Virus record (IMG/VR): IMGVR_UViG_3300044644_000945
Span: 24,325 to 88,324 of that record
DNA from: a virus
Reading direction: 5' to 3' (one strand)
Length of the DNA stretch: 64,000 nucleotides
Shown: piece by piece, positions 28,360-42,876 of the stretch
Layout: every line of letters begins with the position of its first letter
Position numbering within the stretch: position 1 is the first letter of the stretch
Translations under genes and position numbers: made by a program
Notes under the pieces: model-generated
Databases searched by the model: none
Told to the model about the DNA's origin: nothing
Seen by the model: the letters and a program-made list of their open reading frames with translations, nothing else

Positions 28360-28569
28360 TTAGTTATTCATTGTTAGCATTATGTCTTTCTCTTCTGTTA
28401 TTTCACATTCATAGTGCCAGCTTGCATCGCCATCTATGGTAAGTTTTATAAGCATCCCACCATCAGCTGTACCTTGTACTCCTATGACTTGTCTTGGATC
28501 TTGATTTATATCTGTTTTAACATAGACTACTTGCCCATAGTTAAACTTGCATCTTACTAATATTCCCAT
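28360..28569 (-). CDS. Small SH3-like hypothetical protein
   Basis: KFNYGQVVYVKTD.NQ.PR...WHYECEI. Confidence 0.6.
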   Translation of the reverse strand: MGILVRCKFNYGQVVYVKTDINQDPRQVIGVQGTADGGMLIKLTIDGDASWHYECEITEEKDIMLTMNN

Positions 28570-28874
28570 TATTCTTCTGTATCAGGTTTTACAATTTCTG
28601 CTGTAACTTCTATGTTGTCTACATCTTTTTCATCACTGATCTCATTTAGTATAAGGTTGTACTCATAGTTTGTTATAAGACCTGTAGTTCTATGAACTTC
28701 AACCCCATCTTTTAAAAAGACAAGAACAGGAATTGTTCTTACTCTATACTTAACAGCTGTTTCATGATCTTTGTCTACATTGATCTCTATTAATTTTTCA
28801 CCTTCTAATCTTTGAGAAAGTGCTCTACATGGTCCACACCAATCAGCGTAGAATTTTAAAACTTCTATTTTCAT
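28569..28874 (-). CDS. Thioredoxin
   Basis: FYADWCGPC, VRTIPVL, GVEVHR. Confidence 0.92.
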   Translation of the reverse strand: MKIEVLKFYADWCGPCRALSQRLEGEKLIEINVDKDHETAVKYRVRTIPVLVFLKDGVEVHRTTGLITNYEYNLILNEISDEKDVDNIEVTAEIVKPDTEE

Positions 28875-29034
28875 AATGTTGTATTTAATGCTTGTGTTAA
28901 TGTATAAGTGTTTGATGTAGTTGTGCCACCATAAAGTCTGTCATCTATAGTACTACCTGAACTGCTGTGCCCAAAAATACTTCCTTTATTACGAGTAGTA
29001 GGATACTTACTTGTATTGGACAACAAAGGAAGAT

Positions 29035-29235
29035 TTAAAAATTTCTTACTACAATTTCTATGTTATCTGGATTCTCAGCGTGTGCATCAGGAATGTCTCT
29101 TGTGATTTTAAAGATTAGATCTTTCTCAGATTTAGCTAATGCTGTTGATACAGGGATGATTAGTTTACTATCCTCATACTTACCTTCTTTGTCATATGTG
29201 TGTAGCAACACAGCATATTGAAATAACTTCTTCAT
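29035..29235 (-). CDS. Hypothetical protein, probably extended by a -1 frameshift to stop at 28871
   Basis: Ends A_AAT_TTT_TAA, followed by an 11-bp stem and a 55-codon open -1 frame. Confidence 0.7.
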   Translation of the reverse strand: MKKLFQYAVLLHTYDKEGKYEDSKLIIPVSTALAKSEKDLIFKITRDIPDAHAENPDNIEIVVRNF

Positions 29236-30974: not shown

Positions 30975-31045
30975 AGTGTGGTAGAGTAATGGTAACTTGC
31001 TGGACTCATATTCCAGAGCTGAGGGTTCGACTCCCTCCCACGCAA
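30975..31045 (+). tRNA. tRNA-Met(CAT), initiator-like; CCA not encoded
   Basis: Cloverleaf AGTGTGG/CCACGCA, D-arm GAGT/ACTT, anticodon CTGGA-CTCATAT-TCCAG, T-arm GAGGG-TTCGACT-CCCTC; 1:72 mismatch and A11:U24. Confidence 0.9.
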
Positions 31046-31059
31046 CTAAAGATAAAAGT

Positions 31060-31259: not shown

Positions 31260-31578
31260 GGGGGTGACTGGTTTTGACAGGTCATTAGTAGGTAGTACAA
31301 TCAGCCAGAGAGATAACTGTAAACTAAGGTGAATTTAATAAATGGCAAAAACACAATCAGTGTAGTATCTCTAGGAGACAACGCACAAGTAGAAGCTAAC
31401 ATGAACAAAGTATTCTCTTTATTAGGAGAAGAAGTTGCTGTAGCAGCCTAGATTAAAAAGATTTCTCTGTTAGATTAAACAGAGTGGTGGATTGCTCAAG
31501 CCAAGCTTGACCCTATAAGCTGTATAAATTGTATTATTGATCATGGTTTGGACAGGGGTTCGACTCCCCTCACCTCCA
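31260..31578 (+). ncRNA. ssrA: tmRNA
   Basis: GGGGGTGACTGGTTTTGAC 5' end; GGTTCGACTCCCCTCACCTCCA 3' end with G3:U70; tag ORF 31344-31451 ending AVAA-stop. Confidence 0.92.
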
Positions 31579-31644
31579 CAAAATGTACAGTATTCTGTAC
31601 AAAATTGCACATTATGTGTGAAATAACCAACATTGAGAGAAGAA

Positions 31645-34886: not shown

Positions 34887-37088
34887 ATGTATATATCTGT
34901 ACCAACATATGATGATACAACTGATGTATGGTCACACACAGATTTTGAAACAAAAGAAGAATTTGTAAAGTTTATGTGGTCCTTGTTTAAGGAACCAGGT
35001 AAATATGCATTTGATGAAACATCATATAAGTTTAATGAGCAGGCAAAAAACTTTGAAAAAAATAACAAGGTATATTGTTATGCACCTATGCGTTCAAAGG
35101 ACTATATTAACTATTGGGAAACTGAAAAAGATAAATGTAGAAATGGTGTAATATTTAAGAATGCAAAAAACACATGGTATCTTACTAGAGATTATTACAT
35201 GTGGTTAAACTTTCTACCTATATATAACAAAGAGATATCTAAGTTTGGATTTGCTAGTGTCAGAGATGCTCAGTATCATATGGCAATGTATGAAGAGATT
35301 GGCAGACATAGTTCTAAGCATGCTGTTATATTAAAGAAACGTCAGATAGCATCTAGTTATTATCATGGTGCAAAAATGATAAACTACTTTTGGTTTGAAG
35401 AAGGTTCTATCAATAAGATAGCAGGATCTTTAAAAGACTATATTGGTGAGAAAGGTACATGGCGTTTTCTTGAAGAATACAGAAACTTTCTTAATACATA
35501 TACAGGTTGGTATAGACCTTGTACTCCAGATAAGATATTTAACTGGGAACAAAAGATTGAAATAAATCAAGGTGGTAGAAAAAGAGATATAGGTTTAAAA
35601 TCTGTATTATTAGGACTTATATTAGACAAAGATCCTACAAATGGTGTAGGAGGTCCTTGTACTTTTTTCTTTCACGAGGAGGCAGGTATTGCCCCTAAAA
35701 TGAATCAAACCTTAGAGTACTTACTTCCTGCAATGAAGTCTGGTATGGTATATACTGGACAATTTGTAGCTGCAGGATCTGTTGGAGATTTAGATCAATG
35801 TGAACCTTTAAGAGAAATATTAATGATGCCAAACAGTAAAGATGTACTTGCTGTTGAAACTGATTTACTAGATGATAAAGGTACAAAAGGTCAGTGTGCT
35901 TTATTCATACCTCAGCAATGGTCAATGATTCCATGTATAGATGAGTATGGTAACTCTCTAGTAGAGAAGGCATTAGACATGATTAAGGAAGAAAGATTGC
36001 AATGGAAGAAAGATCTTAAACCTGATGATTATCAACTACGTATATCTCAGCATCCTATAACTATTGAAGAAGCATTTGCAAGTAGAAAAGCTGCTAAGTT
36101 TAATCCTTCATTAGTTGTATCACAGATAAGAAGAATTGAAGATGGTGAATATTATAAAGAGTTTCTAGAATTATCTAGAGGTGAAAATAATGTTATCACT
36201 GCAAAAGAATCTAAAAAGATTCCTATATCAGAATTTCCTATATCAGCAAAAACAGAAAACAAAGAAGGTGTACTTGTTGTATGGGAAAGACCTGCAAAAG
36301 ATCCAACCTTTGGAATGTACTACGCATCTATTGACCCTGTTGCAGAAGGAAAGACAACTACCTCAGACTCATTGTGTTCTATATTTGTATATAAGACATC
36401 ACAAGAAATTACCAAACATAAGGCTGATGGTACAATAGATTCATACATAGAAAGAGACAAGATTGTTGCAGCATGGTGTGGCAGGTTTGATGACCTTAAC
36501 AAAACACATGAAAGACTAGAGCTTATTATTGAATGGTATAATGCCTGGACAATAGTAGAAAATAACATATCTTTGTTTATTCAGTATATGATTGCTAAAA
36601 GAAAACAAAAGTATCTAGTGCCTAAAAGTCAAATATTATTCTTGAAAGAATTGCAAAGTAATACAAATGTGTTTCAAGAATATGGCTGGAGAAATGTTAG
36701 CACATTATTCAAGACTAATCTTGTATCATATGCACAACAATTTATTGAAGAAGAGTTAGATCATGAAACAAAACCTGATGGTACAATTGTAAAAACAACA
36801 TATGGTATTGAAAGAATACCTGATATAATGTTGTTGAAAGAAATGCAAGCATACAGAGATGGACTAAACGTGGATAGATTGGTTGCATTTTGTGCTATGG
36901 TTGCATTTGCACAAGTACAACAATCCAACAGAGGATATGTAAAACGCACTGAAAGAGAGGATGATAATTTGCAAAAGTCAAATAATTATGCTAAATTACA
37001 AGTGAGTCCTTTTCGTCATATAGGAAAAAATAAAAGCATAAATAGTGGTATGACAAAACCACGCAATCCATTTAGAAATTTTAAATAA
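34887..37088 (+). CDS. terL: Terminase large subunit (crAss-type)
   Basis: LKKRQIASSY (Walker A variant), FFHEEAG (Walker B), ASIDPV RNase H-like nuclease, VENN, NVDRL. Confidence 0.92.
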   Translation: MYISVPTYDDTTDVWSHTDFETKEEFVKFMWSLFKEPGKYAFDETSYKFNEQAKNFEKNNKVYCYAPMRSKDYINYWETEKDKCRNGVIFKNAKNTWYLTRDYYMWLNFLPIYNKEISKFGFASVRDAQYHMAMYEEIGRHSSKHAVILKKRQIASSYYHGAKMINYFWFEEGSINKIAGSLKDYIGEKGTWRFLEEYRNFLNTYTGWYRPCTPDKIFNWEQKIEINQGGRKRDIGLKSVLLGLILDKDPTNGVGGPCTFFFHEEAGIAPKMNQTLEYLLPAMKSGMVYTGQFVAAGSVGDLDQCEPLREILMMPNSKDVLAVETDLLDDKGTKGQCALFIPQQWSMIPCIDEYGNSLVEKALDMIKEERLQWKKDLKPDDYQLRISQHPITIEEAFASRKAAKFNPSLVVSQIRRIEDGEYYKEFLELSRGENNVITAKESKKIPISEFPISAKTENKEGVLVVWERPAKDPTFGMYYASIDPVAEGKTTTSDSLCSIFVYKTSQEITKHKADGTIDSYIERDKIVAAWCGRFDDLNKTHERLELIIEWYNAWTIVENNISLFIQYMIAKRKQKYLVPKSQILFLKELQSNTNVFQEYGWRNVSTLFKTNLVSYAQQFIEEELDHETKPDGTIVKTTYGIERIPDIMLLKEMQAYRDGLNVDRLVAFCAMVAFAQVQQSNRGYVKRTEREDDNLQKSNNYAKLQVSPFRHIGKNKSINSGMTKPRNPFRNFK

Positions 37089-37096
37089 CATACAAC

Positions 37097-39832
37097 ATGC
37101 CAAAATTATATAATGCTCTTCAGCTTAAAGGAGGTGCTACTACAGAATATAATAGAATGGGTACACTTACCCAGCCTATTCAGTTTTTGCTTGCTTCACA
37201 AAAAAATGAGCAATGGGCAGCATGGAATCTAGATTGGTTAGAAATGCAAGGTCTTAAACAGTTAAGACGTAATGCAAGACGCTTGTTAAAAAATTATAAA
37301 CTTGCAAATGGTATCATAGATAAAACAGACTATATAGTAGAAGAAGATAATGAGTATGCAGAACTAATAGATACTCTTACAAAAGAAGATTTATCTGCAT
37401 TTGAATTAAAGTTCTTTCCTATTATACCTAATGTAATCAATGTACTTACTGGTGAATTTGCTAAAAGAAATGATAAGATTACATACAGAGCTGTAGATGA
37501 TACTTCTTTTAATGAGATGCTTGATGCTAAAAGAGGAATGATTGAAGAAACTCTTATGGCATATGGTGAGCAAAAAATGCAAGAGAACATTGCTAAGATG
37601 GGATTAGACCCAAACAATCAAGAGCAAGCTCAACAAGCTCAACAGATGATGTCTCCAGAAAGCATTAAGACTTTACCAGAAATAGAACAGTTCTTTAAAA
37701 AAGATTATAGATCTATGGTAGAACAATGGGCAGCTCACCAGCACTCAGTAGATACTGAAAGATTCTATATGAAAGAATTAGAGAACATGGCTTTCAGAGA
37801 TATGCTTATTACTGATAGAGAGTTTTGGCATTTTAAATTGAATGAAGATGATTATGATATTGAGATATGGAACCCTGTTCTTACATTCTATCATAAATCA
37901 CCTGAAGCAAGATACATATCACAATCTAACTGGGTAGGAAGAGTAGACTTAATGACCATATCTGATATCATAGATAGATATGGATACATGATGACTAAAG
38001 ATCAAATGCAACAGTTAGAAGCTATATATCCTGTTAAATCTGCAGGATATGCATTACCAGGCGTACAAAATGATGGTTCATTCTATGACTCTACAAGATC
38101 ACATGACTGGAATGTTGAGGGTCCATCATTAGGTATGCGTCAGTTCTTAGCACATAGAGATGCAGTACTTAATACTGGTGATGACATTATATATAGAATA
38201 CTTAATGAGTCTGAAGATTTAATGGACTTTAGTAATTACTCTTTGTTACGTGTTACTACAGCATATTGGAAATCTCAAAGAATGTTAGGACATCTTACAA
38301 GAATGGATGATGAAGGAATAATGCATCAAATGATTGTAGATGAAAACTTTAAAGTAACAGAAAAACCTATATATGACAATTCTGTTATAAAAGGTAAATC
38401 AAGAGACACTCTTATATTTGGAGATCATGTTGATTGGATATGGATTAACCAAGTATGGGGTGGTGTAAAGATAGGTCCTAACAGACCATCATTCTATGGT
38501 AACAATGATAACATGGGATTCAAACCTTTGTATCTAAATTGTCATCCATTGAAGTTTCAGTTTAAAGGTGATAACAGTTTATATGGTTGCAAGTTACCTG
38601 TTGAAGGTTCTGTATTCCATGATAGAAACTCACGCTCGCGCGCGCTTGTAGACAAGATGAAACCATTTCAAATTGGATATAATCTTACTAATAATCAGAT
38701 TGCAGATATCTTAGTAGATGAGTTAGGTACAGTTATTATGCTTGATCAGAATGCATTACCACGTCACTCAATGGGTGAAGACTGGGGTAAGAACAATTTG
38801 GCTAAAGCATATGTAGCAATGAAAGATTTTCAAATGTTACCTTTAGATACATCTATTACAAATACTGAGAATGGATTAAACTTCCAACATTATCAAGTAC
38901 TTAACCTTGAACAAACTCAAAGGTTAATGTCTAGAATACAGTTATCTAATTACTTTAAGCAACAAGCATTTGAAGTTATTGGTCTTACACCTCAGCGTAT
39001 GGGTGCAGTAAATGCACAAGAAACTGCTACAGGTATAGAGCAAGCTATCAACATGAGTTACTCACAAACAGAAATGTACTTTGTAAATCACTCAGAATAC
39101 TTAATGCCAAGAGTACATCAGATGCGTACAGACTTAGCTCAATACTATCATAGTACAAAACCTAGTATAAGATTACAATATGTAACATCTCTTGATGAAA
39201 AAATAAACTTCCAAATTAATGGTACAGATTTATTAGCAAGAGAGTTGAACATATTTACATCTACAAAAGTAAATCAAAAACAAATCACAGAACAAATTAG
39301 ATCATTAGCATTATCTAACAATACTGCTGGTGCATCTATATATGATTTAGGTAATCTTATCAAAGCTGATTCACTTGCTGAAATTGATCATACTCTTAAA
39401 AACATTGAAGAGAAAGTTAATGCTCAACGTCAACAAGATCAACAAGCACAACAAGAACAAATTCAAATGCAAGAACAAGCTGCTGCTGAAAGACAAGAAT
39501 CTCAACAAAGATTTATAGCAGAACAAAATCAACTTAATAGAGAATCTAATGAGCGTGTTGCTGAAGTTAGAGCATCTGTTAATACTGCAACACAAGATCT
39601 TAATGCAAATGAACAATCAGATTATATAGATACATTAGAATATCTTGATAAGAAAAATGCAAAACAAGTTGACCAATCACTGGCTAGAACACGTGAAGTT
39701 AATCAACAAATAAATGATCAAGAAAAGAATGCATTAAAAAACAAAGAGTTACAAGTGCGTCAAAGTATAGCTGATAAACAAGTACAAGTTGCATCAATAA
39801 ATAAAAACAAATATGACAAAAAGAAGTCATAG
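37097..39832 (+). CDS. Portal protein
   Basis: Follows terL; 911 aa; FPIIPNVINVLTGEF, long Gln-rich coiled-coil C-terminal barrel. Confidence 0.88.
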   Translation: MPKLYNALQLKGGATTEYNRMGTLTQPIQFLLASQKNEQWAAWNLDWLEMQGLKQLRRNARRLLKNYKLANGIIDKTDYIVEEDNEYAELIDTLTKEDLSAFELKFFPIIPNVINVLTGEFAKRNDKITYRAVDDTSFNEMLDAKRGMIEETLMAYGEQKMQENIAKMGLDPNNQEQAQQAQQMMSPESIKTLPEIEQFFKKDYRSMVEQWAAHQHSVDTERFYMKELENMAFRDMLITDREFWHFKLNEDDYDIEIWNPVLTFYHKSPEARYISQSNWVGRVDLMTISDIIDRYGYMMTKDQMQQLEAIYPVKSAGYALPGVQNDGSFYDSTRSHDWNVEGPSLGMRQFLAHRDAVLNTGDDIIYRILNESEDLMDFSNYSLLRVTTAYWKSQRMLGHLTRMDDEGIMHQMIVDENFKVTEKPIYDNSVIKGKSRDTLIFGDHVDWIWINQVWGGVKIGPNRPSFYGNNDNMGFKPLYLNCHPLKFQFKGDNSLYGCKLPVEGSVFHDRNSRSRALVDKMKPFQIGYNLTNNQIADILVDELGTVIMLDQNALPRHSMGEDWGKNNLAKAYVAMKDFQMLPLDTSITNTENGLNFQHYQVLNLEQTQRLMSRIQLSNYFKQQAFEVIGLTPQRMGAVNAQETATGIEQAINMSYSQTEMYFVNHSEYLMPRVHQMRTDLAQYYHSTKPSIRLQYVTSLDEKINFQINGTDLLARELNIFTSTKVNQKQITEQIRSLALSNNTAGASIYDLGNLIKADSLAEIDHTLKNIEEKVNAQRQQDQQAQQEQIQMQEQAAAERQESQQRFIAEQNQLNRESNERVAEVRASVNTATQDLNANEQSDYIDTLEYLDKKNAKQVDQSLARTREVNQQINDQEKNALKNKELQVRQSIADKQVQVASINKNKYDKKKS

Positions 39833-41226: not shown

Positions 41227-42876
41227 ATGAGTACTCCAGTTTTAAACAATGGTCTCTTTTTGCGTGACACTACCTATAAGGTAAGCTCGCATGTAGATTC
41301 TTACCATTTGCAAAATATGCTTAAGACTTCAGAGCCTATGGATTTAGGACCTGTTGACTTATGGGCAATGACGCAAAAGGTAGAAATGCCTCTTTATCAG
41401 ATGGCATCTTTTGGTGGTAAAAACACCATTATGGTAGACAATGCTCGTGGAGAGTACAAATGGCAAACACCAATTGTACAAGATCTTCCTTACATTGTAG
41501 AAGATGTTGAACCTACACAAACAGCTTTAGGAGCTGATGGTACACTCTTCAAAATCAAAATTAACAGACGTATATTTGGATCAGGTGATATCATCACTTA
41601 TGACAAATATAAAGGTCTAGAACTTTACATTGTACCTAGTGAAGACATCCTTCCTTCAGGAGATGGTTTCATCTATACAGTACAATTAGTAAACAACAAC
41701 AACACAGCTACCTTAGACAAAAAGTATCTTAAACCAGGTACTAAATTCTTCAGAAAAGGTTCTGCTCGTGGTGAGTATGGAGAAAGATTCTCTGACATAG
41801 GAGAATTACAAAATGGTTTCAGAGAGTACTACAACTTTGTAGGAGGTGCTGAAGCTCACGTACACTATTCTATTTCATCTCGTGCTGACATGATGATGAA
41901 AGGTGGTCTTAATGCAGATGGTACAGTTCCTGTAACTGAAATCTGGAGATCATTTGATAAAAACCTTGATCCATCTATCACTAAGATTGATGACATGGTA
42001 AAATCAATGGGTAAAGATTGGATCAAAAAATCTTATGACAATGGAAATTTAACAAGATCTTTTGTTACTAATCTTGAAGCAGCTCACTTATCTAAAGTAG
42101 CTAATGACATTGAAACTTACTTAATGTGGGGACAAGGTGGTAGAATTAAACAAGATGGTCCAGATGATATCAGATTATCAGTAGGACTTTGGTCTCAATT
42201 AGATAACTCTTACAAAAGAATCTACAACAAAGGTTCTTTCAACTTAGAGTTGTTCAGATCAGAAATCTTTAACTTCTACAATGGTAAAGTTGAATTTAAA
42301 GGACCAGATCCAAATAGACAAATTATTGTTCAAACTGGTATGGCTGGTATGAGAATGGTTAATGAGGCTATCAAAAAAGAAGCATTCTCAGGAACTATTG
42401 GAGGTACTACTGGATTAATTGCTAACATGGATCAGTCTGGTGTTGGTGCTATCTCTGGTAAAAATGCAATGGACTTGAACTTTGGATTTGCTTTCACAAG
42501 CTATACAATTCCATTCTTGGCAAATGTTAAGTTTGTATTGAACCCAGCATTTGACAATGTTCACACTAATGATATTGAGAATCCAATCATTGATGGATAC
42601 CCATTATCATCTTACAACTTCATTGTATTTGATATCACTGACAACACTAATGACAACATCTTCTTGTTGAAATTAAGCTGGGATAATCAATTGAAATGGT
42701 TCTACCAAAATGGTACTATGGACTATATGGGTAGATCTCAAGGATTTGCATCTTCTGGAAACTTCAATGGTTATAGAGTATTTATGACTCAAACTATGCC
42801 AAGTATCTGGGTTAAAGATCCAACCAAAGTATTAAAAATTGTTATGAGAAACCCTGTAACTGGTGGATCATTCTAA
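41227..42876 (+). CDS. Major capsid protein
   Basis: 549 aa, crAss-type gene order, strongly biased codons, terminator follows. Confidence 0.85.
   Translation: MSTPVLNNGLFLRDTTYKVSSHVDSYHLQNMLKTSEPMDLGPVDLWAMTQKVEMPLYQMASFGGKNTIMVDNARGEYKWQTPIVQDLPYIVEDVEPTQTALGADGTLFKIKINRRIFGSGDIITYDKYKGLELYIVPSEDILPSGDGFIYTVQLVNNNNTATLDKKYLKPGTKFFRKGSARGEYGERFSDIGELQNGFREYYNFVGGAEAHVHYSISSRADMMMKGGLNADGTVPVTEIWRSFDKNLDPSITKIDDMVKSMGKDWIKKSYDNGNLTRSFVTNLEAAHLSKVANDIETYLMWGQGGRIKQDGPDDIRLSVGLWSQLDNSYKRIYNKGSFNLELFRSEIFNFYNGKVEFKGPDPNRQIIVQTGMAGMRMVNEAIKKEAFSGTIGGTTGLIANMDQSGVGAISGKNAMDLNFGFAFTSYTIPFLANVKFVLNPAFDNVHTNDIENPIIDGYPLSSYNFIVFDITDNTNDNIFLLKLSWDNQLKWFYQNGTMDYMGRSQGFASSGNFNGYRVFMTQTMPSIWVKDPTKVLKIVMRNPVTGGSF

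Follow-up and report, generated by a model that had tools for sequence, protein, structure and literature searches.

The last codons of a short phage gene raise the question of whether its stop codon is always the end of its protein. The gene encodes 66 amino acids (aa) and lies, like every element of the junction described here, on the minus strand of a 64,000-nucleotide (nt) stretch of the IMG/VR virus record IMGVR_UViG_3300044644_000945; we call this whole stretch the window. The 3' end of the gene reads AGA AAT TTT TAA, and the slippery heptamer A_AAU_UUU within it abuts the stop, with a stem downstream and a second, overlapping frame that stays open past it. Comparison with related sequences leads us to propose that the gene carries a programmed -1 ribosomal frameshift at its last two sense codons, a reading to which we assign a probability of roughly 0.88. 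A share of the ribosomes very probably slips back one base here, because all 48 distinct relatives keep this layout.

The junction and its conservation in relatives

The initial annotation of the locus, made from the letters of the window, had proposed such a frameshift with products of 66 aa and about 121 aa, a proposal that the comparison of relatives supports. Its coordinates and sequences for the heptamer, spacer, stem and -1 frame proved exact to the base. A_AAU_UUU stands in register at 29044..29038, at the stop of the 66-aa open reading frame (ORF), and the -1 frame, which has no ATG, is open for 55 codons before a TGA (28873..28871) that overlaps the ATG of a thioredoxin gene (28874) as ATGA. 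The translation of the -1 frame runs LNLPLLSNTSKYP...TYTLTQALNTTL, ending QALNTTL, and its sole start-like codon is a TTG at codon 5, within the first helix (S1) of the downstream RNA.

The heptamer by itself is not beyond chance in the 31% G+C window. AAATTTT occurs 34 times there against 65.6 +/- 9 expected from dinucleotide shuffles, and is under-represented, while AAATTTTTAR occurs once against 3.4 expected. The scarcity of AAATTTT may reflect avoidance of slippery runs in an AT-rich phage. Once relatives are compared, the whole combination of elements is, on that comparison, far beyond chance. Scans of viral and metagenome contigs gave a close clade of 61 loci with 43 distinct junction sequences, which with five distant ones make up the 48 distinct junctions; all but one of these (47/48) come from assemblies or studies other than that of the window.

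Close homologues are nearly all 66 aa long with the C-terminus VRNF, and in each of the 43 close-clade junctions a slippery site is followed by a stop: A_AAT_TTT in 40, C_CCT_TTT in two and T_CCT_TTT in one (L062). The last three codons are correspondingly AGA or CGA followed by AAT TTT (40 junctions), CGC CCT TTT (two) and CGT CCT TTT (one). Close-clade junctions use TAA or TAG as the stop after the heptamer, and TGA is found besides these two in the RPF clade, a group of relatives treated with the wider family below. Across all 48 distinct junctions, a canonical X_XXY_YYZ heptamer, either A_AAT_TTT or C_CCT_TTT, stands in register in 47. The initial annotation had suggested looking in homologues for the heptamer and a downstream stem; a slippery site is present in 48 of 48 distinct junctions and the stem in 41 of the 43 close-clade sequences.

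Codon choice at the junction departs from that in the rest of the gene. Elsewhere in the close-clade ORFs, AAT accounts for 76% of Asn codons and TTT for 88% of Phe codons, and at the junction they account for 40 of 40 and 43 of 43. CGA and CGC do not occur among the 51 Arg codons elsewhere in these ORFs and are present just where the X position of the heptamer is preserved: CGA replaces AGA, retaining the A, and CGC is found only alongside CCT, giving C_CCT_TTT. By this comparison the heptamer is conserved beyond both protein sequence and codon usage, and the switch from A_AAT to C_CCT appears coordinated.

The frame arrangement is retained as well. In all 43 close-clade sequences the -1 frame is open, for 45-108 codons, while the +1 frame shuts within 1-15 codons; over all 48 junctions the -1 frame is open in every case, for 45-188 codons. 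Near the C-terminus of each of the 43 close-clade extensions lies the motif N-x-Y-[ST]-L-[TS]-x-A-(L), with its Tyr 7-15 residues from the end. The Tyr and Leu of the motif are invariant, and the Leu is written with five different codons and the Asn with two. Between its start and the motif the tail varies in sequence, with Ser, Thr, Asn and Gly abundant.

The RNA downstream of the heptamer

The initial annotation had described an 11-base-pair (bp) stem after a 5-nt spacer. That stem is present: CUUCCUUUGUU (29032..29022) pairs with AAUAAAGGAAG (28990..28980) beginning 5 nt after the heptamer, and the 63-nt stretch has a minimum free energy of -14.4 kcal/mol (z = -4.79 against dinucleotide shuffles). 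It is not a plain hairpin, however. Covariation among the relatives supports a predicted stimulator in the form of a three-helix pseudoknot, of which the stem is S1. In this model the bulge on the 5' side of S1 is complementary to sequence about 5 nt past the S1 3' arm, forming a second helix (S2), and the upper hairpin is closed at its base by a third (S3). The stem begins 3-9 nt past the heptamer, mostly 5 nt, in 41 of the 43 close-clade sequences. Coordinates and pairing statistics for each arm are collected in Table 1.

The sequences paired in S2 vary by lineage. GUCCAA on the 5' side faces UUGGGC on the 3' side in the window, and the corresponding pairs are GGUCUA with UAGACC in L003, UUGGUC with GACCAA in L006, UUUCCAA with UUGGAAA in L008, GUGGAU with AUCCAC in L015, UGCCA with UGGCA in L020 and CCAACA with UGUUGG in L021. 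S2 arms pair better with their own partners (-7.2 kcal/mol) than with those of other lineages (-5.4 +/- 0.4 kcal/mol), a difference attained in 0 of 2000 permutations.

We assessed the helices on a MAFFT alignment of 25 sequences picked among those with a clear S1, counting eight pairs in S1, seven in S2 and six in S3. Over the three helices together, 87.1% of cells are paired, compared with 64.5% in shuffled alignments and 30-47% after a shift of the partners by 1-3 columns. Changes on both sides occur in 20 of the 21 pairs, and none of 500 shuffles attained any of the observed measures. RNAalifold predicts S1 (10 bp) unaided.

A covariance model was built from S1 and S3 only, leaving S2 out, and run on the 48 sources. 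It matched the junction alone in 36 of the 48, and in the whole window it gave a single match, at 28958-29044 (E 3e-10). On the alignment made with this model, S2, which was not modelled, pairs in 79.5% of cells, and each of its seven pairs shows compensatory changes. Across these analyses, S1, S2 and S3 together are 86-87% paired. The amino acids encoded by the covarying arms differ widely, and the covariation can therefore not be put down to protein constraint. Close to its start the tail has a conserved Pro and a conserved Gly, which the invariant CC and GG of S1 account for. A search of Rfam at the site gave no family match.

Table 1. Position of the junction elements and of neighbouring features in the window.
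Feature	Position	Strand	Remarks
Zero-frame ORF	29035..29235	-	66 aa + UAA; encodes the folded beta-beta-alpha-beta domain; uncharacterised family of phage proteins
Slippery heptamer A_AAU_UUU	29038..29044	-	zero-frame register; P site AAU, A site UUU
Zero-frame stop UAA	29035..29037	-	abuts the heptamer; also opens the 5-nt spacer 29037..29033
-1 frame extension	28871..29038	-	55 codons + TGA; Ser/Thr/Asn/Gly-rich; predicted disordered
S1 5' arm CUUCCUUUGU	29023..29032	-	93.6-95% of S1 cells paired; both-side changes in 7/8 counted pairs
S1 3' arm AUAAAGGAAG	28980..28989	-	pairs with S1 5' arm
S2 5' arm UGUCCAA	29016..29022	-	bulge directly after the S1 5' arm; about 80% of cells paired; 7/7 pairs changed on both sides
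S2 3' arm UUGGGCA	28968..28974	-	5 nt past the S1 3' arm
S3 5' arm UACAAG	29010..29015	-	base of the upper hairpin, between S2 5' arm and S1 3' arm
S3 3' arm CUCGUA	28990..28995	-	83-84% of cells paired; 6/6 pairs changed on both sides; the window forms 5/6
End motif NTYTLTQAL	28886..28912	-	family pattern N-x-Y-[ST]-L-[TS]-x-A-L
Thioredoxin gene	28569..28874	-	PF00085, E 6.5e-13; adjacent gene, not conserved with the element
Rightward block	29337-63228	+	large terminase 34887-37088, portal 37097-39832, major head protein 41227-42876
tRNA-Met	30975-31046	+	phage-encoded
tmRNA	31260-31581	+	Rfam RF00023, 89.4 bits; ARAGORN tag ANMNKVFSLLGEEVAVAA, 18 aa

Mechanism and alternatives

The comparison of relatives brought out a signal, an open frame, an end motif and RNA pairing, and from these we infer a slip, a rate of slipping and a role for the tail. 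The ribosome would come to stand with AAU in the P site, UUU in the A site and UAA next, at which point the three-helix pseudoknot, starting 5 nt downstream, would resist unwinding. Most ribosomes would terminate at UAA and release the 66-aa folded domain. A fraction would slip by -1 in tandem, tRNA-Asn re-pairing on AAA and tRNA-Phe on UUU, and would then read UUA and go on for 55 codons. The resulting 121-aa form would consist of the domain, a disordered tail and the conserved N-x-Y-x-L-T-x-A-L some 10 residues short of the C-terminus. The first ~24 codons of the tail would mainly encode the RNA structure, and the end motif would be the part under protein-level selection. Heptamers of the form H_HH.U_UU.Y are among the most efficient in E. 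coli (PMC4066793), and both A_AAU_UUU and C_CCT_TTT belong to this class.

An alternative close to this one would have a single tRNA-Phe slip on U_UUU in the P site while UAA or UAG stands unread in the A site, the slip being stimulated by termination. U_UUU_UAR, that is, the T5 run plus the stop, is the only invariant part of the site in the close clade (one RPF locus has TGA), the stop always adjoins directly, and in E. coli U_UU.U ranks among the top three tetramers (PMC4066793). The T_CCT_TTT of L062 also speaks for it, as this is not a strict X_XXY_YYZ heptamer. Single slippage, however, would give no reason for the X position to track the P-site codon (A with AAT, C with CCT), as it does in 47 of the 48 junctions, and tandem slippage is the sole explanation of that tracking. 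Placing U_UUU in the P site would also leave a spacer of 2 nt to S1, too short for the usual geometry. We consider slippage of one tRNA at the stop unlikely, if deserving of more weight than the explanations that follow.

Two separate genes could also produce overlapping frames, if the downstream frame had its own, possibly non-canonical start, the heptamer were a matter of codon bias and the RNA served stability or translational coupling. AGA, AAT and TTT are indeed preferred codons, the window has its TTG at -1 codon 5, and 21 of the 43 junctions have an ATG, GTG or TTG somewhere in the first 24 codons. None of these starts is conserved. All three codons are absent from the extension in nine of the 43 junctions and occur solely after codon 25 in 13, an early ATG is found in four, and most early candidates are TTG or GTG codons buried in S1. 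The extension, moreover, always starts exactly at the stop of the 66-aa ORF, and the heptamer switches as a unit to C_CCT_TTT by way of rare Arg codons.

Natural in-frame fusions bear on the same point. In P0026, P0027, P0165, P0034 and P0046 the domain is followed in one frame by a similar tail and the motif; P0026 ends ...GTYTLTSAITN and P0027 and P0165 end ...SNSYTLTS..., and P0165 was recorded from 17 contigs. That the end motif varies synonymously, that the extension has no start of its own and that natural fusions unite both parts lead us to conclude that the two frames make one protein, and an independent downstream gene seems to us very improbable. In the fused P0165 and P0027, R/K-K-F-L stands where their 70-aa relatives P0166-P0209 have R-N-F-stop; judged from the protein sequences, this is the outcome expected of one extra A in the slippery A-run.

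Two further routes past the stop were considered and rejected. Readthrough or reassignment of the stop codon would continue frame 0, which shuts after the stop, with TAG TAA in several relatives, and is unconserved there. Reinitiation at the ATG of TAAATG, found in some relatives, would likewise be in frame 0 and not in the conserved -1 frame.

The extra A suggested for the fusions, along with the pair of homopolymers at the site, could be taken to favour transcriptional slippage, in which RNA polymerase would gain or lose a base in A3T5 and some mRNAs would encode the fusion in one frame. Productive transcriptional slippage usually needs about eight to nine or more identical bases, whereas the runs here are only three A and five T. 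The conserved register of the heptamer relative to the reading frame, and a covarying pseudoknot 5 nt past the site, which has no role in polymerase slippage, fit a ribosomal mechanism, and slippage during transcription strikes us as more improbable still than two genes. Least credible of all is an artefact or decay. A sequencing or assembly indel could have interrupted the five Ts, or one 121-aa ORF could have decayed into two pieces; errors are common in homopolymers, and the two parts do share a frame in a few relatives. Yet the 48 distinct junctions share the frame arrangement, 47 of them from other assemblies or studies, and both parts are under purifying selection. The initial annotation had itself allowed for an assembly indel in the T5 run, and we take the run to be no assembly error because independent DNA contigs of two other lake metagenome runs carry the identical junction with zero indels.

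Several observations count against a programmed tandem slip at a conserved pseudoknot. Part of the conservation of the heptamer reflects codon bias, because its codons are the commonest of an AT-rich genome, and the shuffle controls for the RNA overstate significance because the sequences are related. L023, L024, L054, L055, L058, L060 and L062, together with the RPF clade, do not fit the RNA model, and a simple stem search found no S1 in L014 and L058; ten of the misfits show some stem at a similar distance. The 5-nt loop that would span an S1 of 8-10 bp is short for classical H-type geometry. Metatranscriptome contigs from two runs represent a 90-95% relative and end at 28881, short of the junction. 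In an AlphaFold2 model of the fused P0027 the tail is disordered (predicted local distance difference test, pLDDT, 44-60) and does not dock on the domain, which is weak evidence given the shallow alignment.

The protein, its genome and known systems

The 66-aa domain is modelled by AlphaFold2 as beta-beta-alpha-beta with a pLDDT of 87.8. Neither Pfam nor PHROG, tail assembly chaperones included, gave a match to the window protein or to any of 92 members of the family, and a profile search of the PDB and the ESM Atlas found no function for the 66-aa protein. Fold searches returned matches at chance level only (Foldseek against the PDB, E >= 0.33, and against BFVD, E >= 0.08; VIA-align, Z <= 6.5). 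The VIA-align matches at Z <= 6.5 were PurS, the N-domain of ribosomal eL20, PaaB and phi29 p6; for phi29 p6 Foldseek gave E = 0.66 with a template modelling score of 0.54-0.57, and VIA-align gave Z = 4.1, where the usual chance level is 7-8.

For the tail, the end motif most likely serves as a short docking peptide or contributes an extra beta-strand. In the tailed form a flexible linker would join the folded core to a conserved tip, an arrangement like that of SSB or the tau form of dnaX, and the slip rate likely fixes the ratio of untailed to tailed subunits. Mimicry of the phage tmRNA tag by the tail motif was considered and dropped, as the ARAGORN tag ANMNKVFSLLGEEVAVAA bears no resemblance to it. 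In L015, L018, L019 and L037 the tail contains GN[VI]GIGT[ST], a motif of fibre-like proteins in Bacteroidota and phages of that phylum, which hints that tails may in some cases be fibrous and not simply disordered.

An exhaustive profile search placed the domain in 274 clusters at 50% identity, most of them with a length of 63-74 aa and with their C-terminus exactly where the domain stops. Short representatives end in RPF (86) or RNF (18), and the C-terminal Phe is the sole invariant residue in an alignment of 92 sequences. In four phage loci of the RPF clade and in a megaphage of 735 kb (LR756501), a stop follows cgC_CCT_TTT in every case (5/5), and the -1 frame is open for 69-188 codons. 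The four phage loci have a 7-10 bp stem 6-7 nt 3' of the heptamer; folding of the megaphage locus, L069, gave no comparable stem 6-7 nt downstream. In that locus (LR756501.1, 259665-262265, reversed) the family member ends cgC_CCT_TTT TAA, and its 188-codon -1 extension has collagen-like G-T-S and G-S-S triplet repeats and an IGLGTTNP motif. A tblastn search for isolated phages matched the family only in this unannotated 735-kb megaphage, and a search of the literature found no account of the 66-aa protein family or of frameshifting in it.

Alignments to which tail fragments were added came out misplaced and were left unused for folding (in A6 the front halves of the tails fell under N-domain columns; A7 was likewise affected). 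In A7, MAFFT laid the tail motif SNTYTLTQAL (28886-28912) on the domain segment STALAKSEKDL (29119-29151), both on the minus strand; this overlay may be internal mimicry or simply an alignment artefact.

The source of the window is an uncultured freshwater crAss-like phage. The record is 88 kb long and estimated at 70% complete, its large terminase shares 24-26% identity with the terminases of Bacteroides, Flavobacterium and Azobacteroides crAss-like phages, and the same DNA recurs in lake-water metagenomes of many studies. The 66-aa gene is the first of a leftward block, beside thioredoxin, and PhoH lies in the divergent rightward block. By their N-terminal sequences, neighbouring ORFs in relatives resemble MazG, PhoH, dUTPase, SSB, dNMP kinase and HNH proteins, and in some cases thioredoxin. 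Structural genes were not among the neighbours in relatives; those of the window begin on the opposite strand, and the locus does not lie between major tail protein and tape measure genes.

In 10 of the 43 junctions, namely in the clade of the window and some others, the extension is followed by thioredoxin, and in most other relatives by a different gene. Because the ATGA overlap is found in just these 10 junctions, coupling to thioredoxin is not a feature of the family, and control of thioredoxin translation by the frameshift would at most be specific to some clades. The thioredoxin itself is short at its N-terminus, covering Pfam positions 21-93 of 103 and beginning at the strand before the CGPC motif.

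A broader picture can be sketched only tentatively, and we think it rather less likely than not to hold as a whole. The frameshift would define a large uncharacterised family of at least 274 clusters, found mostly in waters and soils and spread over crAss-like phages, megaphages and other phage contigs, whose untailed and tailed forms would co-assemble. The N-x-Y-x-L-T-x-A tip would dock a host or phage partner, and the stoichiometry of a complex for replication or takeover would depend on how often ribosomes slip, as with tau and gamma. The three-helix pseudoknot would represent a new class of stimulator in bacterial viruses, with hosts that are probably Bacteroidota.

To our knowledge, little work has been done on recoding in the bacteria that crAss-like phages infect, probably Bacteroidota, and the two interchangeable heptamers together with a compact covarying pseudoknot make this site a good model for frameshifting there. 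The conserved tail motif offers a handle, as a short peptide bait, for finding a binding partner. Gene callers currently give a hypothetical protein of 66 aa and, beyond it, either nothing for 160 nt or a spurious small ORF, and a joined coding-sequence annotation is warranted across the whole family. Annotated phage frameshifts are nearly all in tail assembly chaperones, with few in capsid genes (PMC10885494, PRFect). The present case would add a deeply conserved frameshift in a family of non-structural genes that neither Pfam nor PHROGs contains.

Among known systems, the capsid frameshift of phage T7 gene 10A/10B, which Condron, Atkins and Gesteland are said to have described in 1991, is similar in that a -1 slip on a U-rich site in the last codons yields an extension of about 50 residues, with a major short and a minor long form. 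Gene 10, however, encodes the major capsid protein, slips on G_GUU_UUC and has a distant 3' stimulator, whereas here a 66-aa domain in a replication and nucleotide-metabolism neighbourhood has a directly adjoining stop and a compact predicted pseudoknot 5 nt downstream. In lambda G/GT and its counterparts in long-tailed phages, a conserved -1 shift likewise fixes the ratio of short to extended protein, and the evidence is of the same type, namely conservation of the slippery site and the frame arrangement. There is no homology between the two, the location of the gene differs, and G/GT sites usually lack a strong downstream structure, in contrast to the covarying pseudoknot predicted here.

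With respect to the RNA, the IS3 pseudoknot and the IS911 three-way junction are multi-helix frameshift stimulators (PMC4066793). These and the SARS coronavirus-type stimulators resemble the present one in placing several helices a few nt past the heptamer. Their sequences are unrelated to it, and the third helix lies between the S1 3' arm and the S2 3' arm in coronaviruses but would lie between the S2 5' arm and the S1 3' arm here.

For function, the working analogy is bacterial dnaX, in which a -1 slip with a downstream structure makes a core with or without a C-terminal partner-binding region, tau or gamma, in a set ratio. In dnaX the shift truncates the protein, occurs on A_AAA_AAG and is aided by an upstream Shine-Dalgarno-like stimulator; here it would extend the protein, no upstream stimulator was seen, and the proteins are not homologous. 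By this analogy, the two phage forms would be a core without and a core with its partner-binding tip.

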